From Eledone cirrhosa (taxonomy: Eukaryota), in assembly GCA_964016885.1 (NCBI GenBank), contig OZ024744.1:44020001-44084000 (forward strand): a stretch of DNA of 64,000 bases, read 5' to 3'. The notes under the pieces were generated by a model. The model had not been told where the DNA came from, did no database searches, and saw nothing but the letters and a program-made list of their open reading frames with translations. Positions 30,901-37,436 of this stretch are shown here, in pieces (within the stretch, counting starts at the first letter, position 1; each line of letters begins with the position of its first letter). A program made the position numbers and the translations under genes.

Positions 30901-32833
30901 TTAGTTTGTTTGTGATGATAATCTTTTTGAGAATTATGTTAGTCTTGTGTATTATCTTTTGGTTCTGTTTGGAGTTCTGGATCTTAGGGAGGGTGTCTCG
31001 TTGCCCCATGTCAGATTCTTTCATTTTCATCCATTCGATCATAATTTCATCCTTCAAGTTGGCAAGTTCATTCTTATTCATTTCTTTATCATTTACGATC
31101 TCATTGTTTTCATTTTGAGTTTCATGTTGAGCATGCACTCCCTCCACTTTTTCGATCCTTTCTTTAATTTGTTCTGTTGTCAGTGATTCCGCCCCAACCC
31201 TGGGATTCGAAGTGTTACAATTTACCTCGTTTTCACTGACACATGTTTCATTTTCCCTTCGCTGACTTTGTGCTAATCTGATCAATTTCTATATCAGTTA
31301 GTAACTTTTTTTTACAATATTTCTTCGTATATTGGCTAGTTTGTTACTGTCAATATAGGCTCTGTTTTCGGGATGTTTCTTTTTCCACTTGATATATGTC
31401 TGTTCTGTATTCGATGTATTTGATGGGTAGTACATGGCAGTGTAGAAAGCCTCAAGGACTTCTTTATTATCTTCCCTTGACCATTTTTCTCTCTTTTTCT
31501 TTGGATTTCTTGGTGGTGAGCATGGAGGGCCAACAGTAGGAGTATTCCGGTTATGGGAGGTCTCCAGCTCCGAAGTGATGGGAAGGTTTGAACCATTAGC
31601 TGATTTTTGGACCCCAGTTTGGTTCCTCTCTGAGGGACGCGGCTCTTTTTGACCCGGGTGACGGCTGATCCGGTATGAGATTTTATGATTAGGCATTTAC
31701 TTTATTTTGTCGCGTTTTATCTTTATCCGCCAAGGGGTAATCATTTCGTGTTACCACTTCTAGGACGAGTGTCAACCAAGACTAGAGGGGTCGTCCTCCC
31801 CTAGAGACACGGCTATTCCCCCCGGCCGCCATCCCTGTATTTCTTGGTCACGGGGTTTTCTTTTTTTTTTGTTGTTTTTTTAAATTGTTATTATCATGAG
31901 TGGTTCCTTAATGTGAGCATTGCGTGGCTTAAGAATGAAATTATTAATAATATAATATACTTTTTGCTGAAGTTACCTGTTATTGTTGTTGGCTATGTCG
32001 GTGGTGGTGCTGAGGCTTTTTCTATTGTTGGTGGGGAAGGGGGGAGCCAGCAGTGCCATAGTCGTTGACGTTTGGCCGGTGGCCGGGTCACTAAGTCAAT
32101 CTATTTATATCTTTTGCTAGCCTCTCCCTTGTCCAGTGATACCGCCACATTCCCCTTTCTTAAATTAACAGAAGGTAATGGGGGAATAGTGGTGGTAGCA
32201 ATGAAGAAGTGGTTGCGGCGGTGATGGGATAGTGGTAGCAATGATGGATGAAGTGGTGGCGGCGGTGACTATAGTGATGACGTTGTCGTTACAGAGTTTT
32301 GTTGAATAGACTGTAGTTTGTTTGATCTGTGTATCTATGCGTTTGTCGCGTATGTTTAATATATGTTATGACATATTTTCTTAATATTGGAATTAAACAT
32401 TTTGTGAAAACTTGAGACAATAATAATAGTAATTATTATTATTATGCTGGGAATGGTGGTGGTGGTGGTGAAATTACCGTTATCTGGCTGTTGTATTTAG
32501 TGTACACAGAGGGATGATGAGATAGGTGGTGTATCTAGTTTGTGGTGTTGGTGAAATTACTGTTATTTGACTGTTCTATAGAGTGTAGACAGAGGGGGTT
32601 TTCTTCCATTTATAAACTTTTCTTTTTTTAACATAAAATGTATAATACAGAATTAAATATTTGACCGATATAACAGGATATTATGGATTCGAATTTCTGA
32701 GAGCTGAGTCTGGTGCTTTATGTATCATTTGTACTAAGAATTGTTATTTCACAATTGATTTAAATATGTTAAAAATCAAAAACTTACGGGAGCGATTTCA
32801 TGACCTTCTATCCACCATGTGCGTCTTCTTCCC
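27943..32833 (-). mobile_element. R4/Dong-clade non-LTR retrotransposon A, apparently full length
   Basis: Single RT+RLE ORF architecture. Bounded by TTA tracts at 27924-27942 and 32834-32911. 5' boundary inferred from the leader shared with element B. Confidence 0.82.
28088..31696 (-). pseudogene. RT + CCHC + restriction-like endonuclease ORF of element A (broken)
   Basis: KWSREDNKEV N-terminal motif, KSPGKDKI, NYRPITCL, IDYKKAFDS, GIF*GDSLSP, FYMDD, CRVC..ETIDHI, RPDII..LIDMSVP; split into six ORF pieces. Confidence 0.93.
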
Positions 32834-32898
<65 letters not shown>

Positions 32899-35900: not shown

Positions 35901-37436
35901 TATTTATCTCAGTATTCAGATCATTGTCTGCTTCGGGTGGTTCCTCCGTTCTCAGGACCTCTTCACCTTCATTTCCCACTGGCTCGCTTGTCTGGCATAC
36001 TACACCCGCCATCTCCAAGCCATTCTCTCTGCTCAGTTCCTCCAGTTCCAGCTCGCTTATCCACCCATTAGTTCTTATTACCCGAGCCTGCCCGGCCAAT
36101 TTTTGTTCATCTAATTTAAATAAACCAATCTCGTTCCAGATGTTATGCATCCTTCTCCTGTAGCCCCTCTCCTTGGGGTTACTTTTCAGGTAACATTGCA
36201 TAACAGTTCTATTCAATTCTTTCGTCCAGTTGGTTCTGGCCCCTTTCCTTCTTCTCCTTCCTCCAACATCAGCAGTATTTGGTTGACAGTCAGGTTCCTG
36301 CTGCTGAGCCAGGGGGCACCTGTTGGGTGAGAGTCTGTCACATGACGTTCTAGTCTCCATTTCACCGTTATTCGAACTGTTTATGTTCGATATTTAAACA
36401 CTCTTATCGAGGATTGGCGAATGTATGGTTACATAGCCATCTGTGGATCCGCCATTCCACTTGGCCCTTGTGTGGCATTATCACCACGCTGTATACGAAC
36501 ACACATAAACAAACAAACACACAGGCAGAAAGGGCCCCAAAAATGAATAAGCATAAGTTTCATTGTAATGTAGTGTTCGAATGCCTGACTTAGTTTTTGT
36601 TTTTTAAGTTTTAGTTTTTCCCCCCTCTTCTCTGTCCGTCCGCCTGCTTCTCTCTTCATTCTTATTTTCTTTACGTTTTTTTGGGGTTTTTTTTTGTTTT
36701 TGTTTTTCTCTGTTTGTTTTTCTCGGTTTTTGCTGTTGTTACTGTGCTGCTTTGGTTTTGTTGTTTGTTTTTTCTTTTTTCTTTTGAGTCTATCTATATA
36801 TTTTGATGCCTTCCTCTTTTTTAGCAGTAGGGATTCTATAATGTGGTGGCAGCAGCCAGCTGGGGGAAGTGGGTGACTGGCGGCGGTAGCGATACTGAGA
36901 CAGTGGTGGTGGTGATGTCGATACCGAGGCAGTGGTGGCGGTGATGTGACCGTATTACTGTAGTGATGGTGCTGTAGCGGTGGTAGCAGTGAAGGAGTGA
37001 AGGGGTGGTGGCGGCGGTGATGGGATAATGGTGGTAATGATGGCCGTAGTGAGCGGTGGTGGTGAAAATGCCGTTATCTGGCTGTTGTGTTTAGTGTACA
37101 CAGGTGATGGGGTGGGTGGTGTATCTAGTTTCTGGTGTTGGTGAGTTTGGCTGTTCTATATAGTGTAGACAGAGGAGAGGAGGGGGGGGGGGTTCTTCTT
37201 CCATTTATAGCCATTTTCTTTTTTGGATATACAGTATACAATACAAAGTTGAATATTTGAATATTTGAGCCTTATAACAATATATTTTGGGTCCGAATTT
37301 TTTGGGGCTCAAGCCGGGTGCTTTACGTAGCATTTGTACTAAGAGTTGTTATTTCACAAATGATTTAAATATGTTAAAAATTCAAAACTTACGGGAGCGA
37401 TTTCATGACCTCCGTCACCTCGTGCGTCTTCTTCCC
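32912..37436 (-). mobile_element. R4/Dong-clade non-LTR retrotransposon B, apparently full length
   Basis: Same architecture as A with a divergent protein; about 75-nt 3' UTR; flanked by (TAA)n at both ends. Confidence 0.82.
32988..36360 (-). pseudogene. RT + CCHC + RLE ORF of element B (broken)
   Basis: NWTKELNRTVMQCY, KSPGPDGV, GIFQGDSLSPLLF, FMDD, CRIC..ETVAHIVSEC, RPDLVV..IVDVA, LQKACLLGTARTLRYVLNI*; frameshifts and a stop. Confidence 0.93.

Follow-up and report, generated by a model that had tools for sequence, protein, structure and literature searches.

The window analysed here, a 64,000-nucleotide stretch of the Eledone cirrhosa genome (C28:44020001-44084000; host genome approximately 3.0 Gb), carries two full-length retrotransposons of R4/Dong type, termed A and B, which begin with one homologous 5' leader. 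We call this leader the head; loci of further copies in the genome carry L numbers. Comparison of the genomic copies showed that the head is an integral part of both lineages and that it has been exchanged between them, repeatedly and in both directions, while the protein-coding bodies stayed apart. The explanation that we consider probable is that an integral head has been traded between the lineages, with transcription starting at or just before the GGG of the 5' end, an unspliced template, and swaps that proceed through truncated elements.

The Two Lineages and Their Common Leader

On the minus strand, A (from 37436) and B (from 32833) start with the same 15 bases, GGGAAGAAGACGCAC, directly after the (TAA)n tracts at 37437-37470 and 32834-32911, respectively. 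An identical 28-mer follows at +26 in A and at +28 in B, and these are its two occurrences in the window. A 1-382 and B 1-373 aligned with an identity of 79% over the alignment, or 87% without gap columns (310/357), and the local alignment score of 376 compares with a shuffle maximum of 31. A second, weaker piece (A 372-439 and B 559-625, 81%) lies beyond a B-specific stretch of about 170 nt. A preliminary description of this DNA had claimed a common leader starting exactly at (TAA)n, which these results confirm; with the second piece counted, the alignable ranges that it gave (32180-32833 and 36970-37436) are also about right. The divergence that it reported for the remaining parts was likewise recovered. 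The 3' untranslated regions (UTRs) of A and B gave no alignment above chance (score 20, shuffle maximum 23), and neither did the ATG-proximal UTRs (score 23, shuffle maximum 32). The full-length proteins are 35% identical over 1204 columns.

Intact natural copies encode a protein of 1141 amino acids (aa) for A (copy L138) and of 1216 aa for B, each in one open reading frame (ORF) with RVT_1. For the reverse transcriptase (RT) tree, 113 proteins longer than 800 aa were collected and two were removed for short RT cover; among the remaining 111 sequences, A and B belonged to two separate large groups, and dozens of foreign homologs were placed between the two. Both proteins contain the RT, a C-terminal CCHC knuckle and a restriction-like PD..D..K endonuclease, and no APE. 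The family profile matched the solved R2 proteins best, in an alignment that spans the knuckle and the endonuclease (E 4.6e-66). No N-terminal zinc-finger pattern occurred within the first 420 aa. A W-T-K-E motif aligned to the R2 Myb region below significance, and there was no Pfam Myb match. The target in front of 30 unselected heads was a TAA tract in 23 cases, a GAA run in five and another sequence in two. The R4/Dong clade is defined by one ORF, an RT with a restriction-like endonuclease, a diverged N-terminal Myb/SANT with no N-terminal zinc fingers, and a (TAA)n target (PMC7998251). By their domains, the R2 profile match and the TAA target, A and B fit R4/Dong, an assignment made by motifs and target. 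Judging from their young copies, both lineages seem to have been active recently. A young subfamily, Y (L201-L220), has dozens of intact 1216-aa ORFs with 99.5% body identity, and young A copies (L137-L140) have intact ORFs of 1132-1141 aa.

The Head as Part of the Elements

A 23-mer of the leader core has 1426 exact copies in the genome (control, 0). As an unselected sample, we took the first 30 copies in position order on C1. An A body followed in 16, a B body in nine and the body of family C, a chimera treated below, in four, so that 29/30 run on into a body and one is bodyless. For the reverse sample, we used a B-specific UTR motif with 1370 matches and took the first 30. Part or all of the head was present in 24 of these B bodies, six were cut off downstream of it, and none had a foreign head. 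The exact GG(G/T)AAGAAG start was retained in 23/30 unselected heads, and 14/30 lay directly behind another Dong tail. The head is thus integral to both lineages. The preliminary description had proposed a genome-wide tabulation of what follows the leader, with an independent TAA-targeting repeat as the outcome that would speak against it. The reading of the leader as such a repeat or a short interspersed nuclear element (SINE), adjacent to the bodies by chance or local duplication, is refuted by the two samples and keeps next to no probability: one sampled copy (L165) is a 100-nt head without a body, whereas the other 29 are continuous with a body with no tail between, and seven B copies on C2 repeat head and body together at a 4.9-kb period.

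Several further observations concern these copies. The seven head-to-tail B copies (L009-L014 and L016) occupy G000:C2:353611524-353641332 with a period of about 4.91 kb. Runs of (GAA)n immediately before the GGGAAGAAG start, seen in 5/30 unselected copies, were listed for L122, L131, L135, L150, L155, L166 and L169; they possibly arose by RT slippage on the element's own first bases. A young A variant (L143, L153, L159, L162, L167) has an internal head duplication, running from 1 to 487 and then from 159 onward. A SINE-like repeat is recurrently inserted at internal AAT runs of Dong UTRs (L141, L258, L277).

Exchange of the Head between Lineages

Two chimeric families have been amplified. Family C consists of B 1-705, followed by a sharp switch into an older A-lineage element at approximately base 176, with the rest of the latter's head kept. 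The junction has three shared bases (CAA) and occurs in 225 exact copies (control, 0). In family M, an A-prime head is joined at approximately base 604, via AATT, to B at an internal AAT run; this junction has 30 exact copies (control, 0). Across 42 elements, the mean head identity was 95.8% between C and B1 and 97.3% between M and A-prime, which is the within-group level, as compared with 86.9% between A and B1. The bodies of the same elements remained true to their lineage despite the mixed heads. An approximately unbiased (AU) test rejected the tree that holds 23 B-body heads together against 26 A-body heads (p-AU 1.8e-5); the groups were set by body type, though after an earlier head tree had been viewed. 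Leader and body trees therefore disagree when compared as the preliminary description had suggested, and the breakpoints are fixed in amplified families. Its proposal of a leader swapped between families of long interspersed nuclear elements (LINEs) stands, with sharp junctions in C and M and transfer in both directions.

Older copies extend this history. The older head version O was followed by an A-type body in 27/30 loci and by a B body in none, with three unassigned. Old B copies (75-85% identical to B1) also carry the head, in an O-like state. Three diagnostic sites gave a clean separation: O and old B had the old states throughout, and nothing but new states occurred in A, A-prime, B1, B2, C, M and Y; a fourth site was left out of the count, since its old-state pattern is unspecific. 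One B copy, L277, is intermediate between the old and new head states. The A-prime head is B-like up to base 504-620 and O-like thereafter. From this mosaic and the diagnostic-site states, the head of the window's A element most likely also came from the B lineage. We infer that the head was transferred in a definite direction three times or more (from B to A-prime/A, from B1 to C, and from A-prime to M), in addition to an older sharing to which no direction is assigned.

Possible Route of the Swaps

All three mapped junctions have the same form. A complete donor head is added, out of register, to a recipient whose own head has been cut, and the shared bases, where mapped, number three to four at most. 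This form fits a 5'-truncated cDNA joined to the head of another element. The heads of donor and recipient resemble each other as closely as copies do inside each family, as would be expected had both been active together. An element cut short within its own UTR would thus join the complete head of the other lineage via three to four shared bases. A template switch during reverse transcription would be the most likely way of joining, although we prefer it only tentatively; a deletion across a head-to-tail pair is possible, and a nested insertion would be unlikely. No leader-insert-leader case was present among 23 cases of a tail followed by a UTR. Since proteins of R2-type elements recognise the 3' end, any working head could drive any body. 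Template switching, deletion and nested insertion are also the options discussed for mouse L1 (PMC3600994) and for R2/R1 hybrids (PMC3414825).

A Predicted Intron in the Head

Across seven head versions, CCC/GTAAGT is invariant at +45 to +47, and it matches the 5' splice-site consensus. In the same versions, the number of invariant columns per 60 along the head was 37, 43, 14 and 38, so that conservation is highest at both ends of the predicted intron. The donor was retained in 56/60 heads and the acceptor in 46/60. The search of the genome for spliced copies was prompted by a joint exactly at the donor position in sequence contigs. These contigs, from four runs, are of unrecorded kind, come from one study with no more than two samples and may themselves have been the source of the assembly; hence, they are not independent support. 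Against a young B head, the same contigs gave no joint at the donor (threshold, 30 in 100).

Two of the 12 pattern matches in the genome are Dong copies (L447 and L448) in which +47 to +213 is missing. The missing segment runs from GT to AG, and its two ends share no bases at the cut. The remaining ten matches are unrelated. L447 and L448 are full length and 87-89% alike in the UTR. Each is nearest to a different unspliced B2 variant, by which measure the two are of independent origin. Four genome-wide matches departed at the donor, namely these two copies and two with point changes. The simplest reading of the segment loss is retrotransposition of a spliced RNA, which would imply Pol II transcription and an RNA 5' end at GGG. 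Taken together, the data argue strongly for a spliced GT..AG intron of 167 nt in the head.

A T-rich tract ending in TACAG/CGTG at about 36489-36520 on the minus strand resembles a second splice acceptor; copies of A, C and O retain it (40 rows). Among copies with the exact upstream 17-mer, none was spliced from the head donor to this candidate acceptor near A 948.

The head is probably a Pol II promoter. Transcription would start at or just before GGG, and the unspliced RNA would be the usual template, given two spliced copies as compared with 1426 with an intact core. The spliced copies would be dead ends because most of the conserved core is lost with the segment.

Likeness to L1/Tx1 5' Ends

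In the window, an L1/Tx1-like element, T1, lies head to head with A. It is full length (37471-43469, plus strand), encodes an ORF1 of 705 codons, APE, RT and zf-RVT, and has (ATT)n flanks. Insertion into an ATT tract was seen in 30/30 T1 copies shown, and the family also occurs in tandem arrays that repeat about every 6.05 kb. Three more L1/Tx1-like families, T2 (L378), T4 (L037:1895-3356) and T3 (L255), begin after (ATT)n and have distinct 5' ends; the RT of T2 is 71% identical to that of T1.

Five Dong head versions could be aligned collinearly with the first 110 nt of T1, at scores of 54-69 (shuffle mean 31, reached in 0-1/2000 shuffles); with strict scoring, 0-3/1000 shuffles did so. The likeness was first spotted by eye and tested afterwards. 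We built a profile from Dong heads alone and ran it over 1.41 Mb of loci that had been collected before any L1/Tx1 search and are enriched for TAA flanks. It gave 306 matches, 24 of them without a following Dong head. These comprised four truncated heads, then 17 L1/Tx1 5' ends of three families, and then three background rows. The 17 rows were 15 of T1, the same copy being repeated in some, together with T2 and T4. Their profile scores were low (4.8-10.3 bits, E 0.6-29) and are not significant as a database search. Common to both are a stretch rich in GC, the GTAAG at +29 to +35 and a tail rich in T. The fourth family, T3, matched the Dong head poorly. Spliced L1/Tx1 copies were found in neither of the two T1 matches nor any of the three T2 matches.

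A broader history may be drawn from this likeness, in which one promoter-plus-intron module is related by descent across LINE clades and travels to and fro between the two Dong lineages, its 110-nt core also serving as the 5' end of TAA/ATT-targeting L1/Tx1 elements, so that these elements would form a promoter-trading guild and the Dong ribozyme would have been given up. We regard this as doubtful, and convergence on a promoter-near splice-donor grammar would explain the likeness equally well. Capture of the leader from an ORF1-bearing LINE, as suggested in the preliminary description, is accordingly unproven, the weak likeness to L1/Tx1 5' ends being confined to the first ~110 nt.

Weighing the Alternatives

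Several points weigh against the favored explanation. Only two spliced copies are known, both B2-type, and no spliced A, C, M or Y copy was found by the search, which covered junctions other than those that start with GT or G-x-A or have G as the fifth base after T/A. The splicing could belong to read-through transcripts of upstream promoters, and the precise 5' end is also compatible with the processing of a longer RNA. The start site, the promoter activity and the splicing are predictions from genomic sequence. The B-to-A direction depends on one intermediate copy (L277) and on a root with rough bootstrap values, and there was no head-less ancestor among 30 old-B and 30 old-head loci. As regards the route, a nested-insertion founder at B705 was not found, the one match being a plain 5'-truncated B, and the present data do not distinguish template switching from tandem deletion.

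An improbable alternative is that the head is an RNA-processing signal that frees the elements from tandem read-through and is spread by the swaps; it would be either a cleavage site or a ribozyme whose fold has escaped recognition. Bombyx mori Dong self-cleaves at the TAA junction via a hepatitis delta virus (HDV)-like ribozyme (PMC3774820); the exact start in 23/30 unselected heads and the commonness of tandems would also suit such a signal. However, no Rfam ribozyme matched up to E 5, a scan of 27500-38000 yielding five weak, unrelated matches. With a descriptor run without positive control, A, B, C and O gave no HDV-type match whose P1 lay at the 5' end, and Y gave just all-wobble 4-bp matches. 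There was no hammerhead core, and the HDV and hammerhead descriptor counts were at shuffle level, apart from a cluster near A 926-930. Shuffled sequences folded better than the first 120 nt did (z +1.72 and +0.78), and no covarying fold is shared. The loss of a GT..AG segment, moreover, favors spliceosomal processing.

Still less probable is that the heads are alike through DNA-level gene conversion or recombination of neighbors, the head being a passenger without selective value and transcription coming from outside. Head-to-tail pairs of unlike elements are frequent enough to allow this, and the junctions lie in or near low-complexity CAC/AAT stretches. Yet the junctions are out of register with part of the head duplicated, the chimeras were amplified to at least 225 and at least 30 copies, and conservation is much higher in the first 120 nt and around the acceptor than in the middle.

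It is very improbable that the head represents the decayed form of an ORF1, captured from a different LINE, whose start the preliminary description had seen in the leader. An ATG followed by Pro/Thr-rich low-complexity sequence, the low complexity of the adjacent L1/Tx1 ORF1 and the weak likeness of the 5' ends had pointed that way. The ATGGAAGAA sequence lies at about 37204 in A and 32609 in B, with frames of 37 and 24 codons. In 45 copies with the ATG context, however, the frame has 10-57 codons and shifts among young copies, none of which keeps a long one, and it was rejected as an ORF1. In addition, the ATG is missing from the old O head, the ORF at 36429-37073 has no Pfam match, and the L1/Tx1 likeness stops before the ORF1 of that element.

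Layout of the Window

A (37436-32912) and B (32833-27940) are arranged head to tail over (TAA)26, with 31-bp satellite arrays on either side (Table 1). The two different arrays (2-1950, 5324-27150 and 50411-60191) make up about half of the window. A short A-type 3' end piece at 27870-27925 lies tail to tail with B. The A ORF of the window is damaged by a stop near 35590 and by frame breaks near 34273 and 33750. In the B UTR (31762-31797, minus strand), a 7-nt hairpin loop and a downstream 7-mer covary across subfamilies (G-C in about 8 and A-U in about 20 of 35 parsed copies), a hint that a pseudoknot may lie immediately upstream of the ORF.

Table 1. Features of elements A and B and of the adjoining T1 5' end (window positions)
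Feature	Position	Strand	Remark
Element A, full-length R4/Dong-type, young A subfamily	32912..37436	-	97-99% to other copies; RT and endonuclease motifs
A head, predicted exon 1, 44 nt	37393..37436	-	GGG start directly after TAA tract
A head, predicted GT..AG intron, 175 nt	37218..37392	-	Donor and acceptor as in segment absent from two B-lineage copies
A head remainder	36790..37217	-	Short ATG frame and CAC-rich low-complexity stretch
M-founding junction within A head	near 36833	-	
A ORF	32988..36393	-	RT, CCHC knuckle, restriction-like endonuclease
(TAA)n tract	32834..32911	.	A tail and B target, giving the A-B tandem
Element B, full-length R4/Dong-type, subfamily B1	27940..32833	-	
B head, predicted exon 1, 46 nt	32788..32833	-	
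B head, predicted GT..AG intron, 166 nt	32622..32787	-	167 nt in most B1 copies; precisely absent in L447, L448
B head remainder	32083..32621	-	C shares B 1-705 and diverges at ~32129
B-specific UTR, two pairable 7-nt stretches	31762..31797	-	Joint change
B ORF	28088..31696	-	Broken in window copy; intact 1216-aa copies elsewhere
(TAA)n/(ATT)n tract	37437..37470	.	Between 5' ends of A and the L1/Tx1-like element
T1 (L1/Tx1-like) 5' end	37471..37580	+	Weakly like first 125 nt of Dong head; GTAAG at +31

Comparison with Known Systems

A literature search, with most subscription papers and Repbase outside its scope, returned no report of head exchange or of an intron in R4/Dong, nor of reciprocal swaps at such depth. 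The main text of two papers (PMC13282606, PMC8967140) on the repeats of cephalopods, where Dong-R4 and L1-Tx1 are abundant, is silent on UTRs and chimeras in the parts consulted. The preliminary description had spoken of an undescribed modular system. This was overstated, as the switching of 5' ends has already been described for L1 and RTE. Promoter swapping itself is known; what is new, and well supported by the genomic copies, is the reciprocal, repeated traffic of one apparently intron-bearing head between deep R4/Dong-type lineages.

The regulatory head of a non-LTR (long terminal repeat) element would thereby be a unit of inheritance separable from the enzyme, across a protein identity of 35%, yielding full-length hybrid families; the cases known earlier lie within one L1 or RTE lineage or are short non-autonomous hybrids. 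An R4/Dong element for which Pol II transcription and a conserved intron are likely, in place of release by a ribozyme, bears on how the R2 superfamily is expressed outside rDNA and on why a retroelement would retain an intron. The young intact copies in both lineages make head-body swaps directly testable. Repeat libraries based on best hits will misassign these heads.

B. mori Dong and Darwinula stevensoni Dong1/2 (PMC7998251, PMC3774820) resemble A and B in the single ORF, the RT with restriction-like endonuclease, the (TAA)n target and the precise 5' junction, and possibly in lacking N-terminal zinc fingers. B. mori Dong, however, starts with a self-cleaving HDV-like ribozyme (PMC3774820), whereas none was found in the heads of A and B, in which both lineages likely share a GT..AG intron instead. 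For mouse L1, 11 head replacements, the recruitment of 5' UTRs and promoters, and inter-family recombination have been described (PMC3600994), and for tobacco RTE, 5' switching (bioRxiv 10.1101/2022.11.04.512097). As in our case, like heads are not monophyletic by ORF in these two systems, replacement is repeated and template switching has been proposed. There, non-homologous heads sit on close bodies of one lineage or subfamily. Here, one homologous Dong head moves both ways across lineages with 35% identity, so that heads converge while bodies stay apart.

The Drosophila R2/R1 hybrid SIDEs (PMC3414825) are similar in that a 5' module is joined to another non-LTR family at a shared target locus; four separate origins were reported, and a template jump or non-homologous recombination was proposed. 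SIDEs are short and non-autonomous and carry a ribozyme module, whereas the Dong hybrids are full length with ORFs and their traffic is reciprocal. L447 and L448 have their counterpart in the SpIREs (PMC5860796), rare full-length L1 retrocopies without a GT..AG piece of the 5' UTR, which are dead ends that have lost promoter sequence. The splice sites of L1 come and go as the UTR changes. In contrast, every version of the Dong head retains the donor and the acceptor, a pattern that suggests that an intron or U1 site is being maintained.

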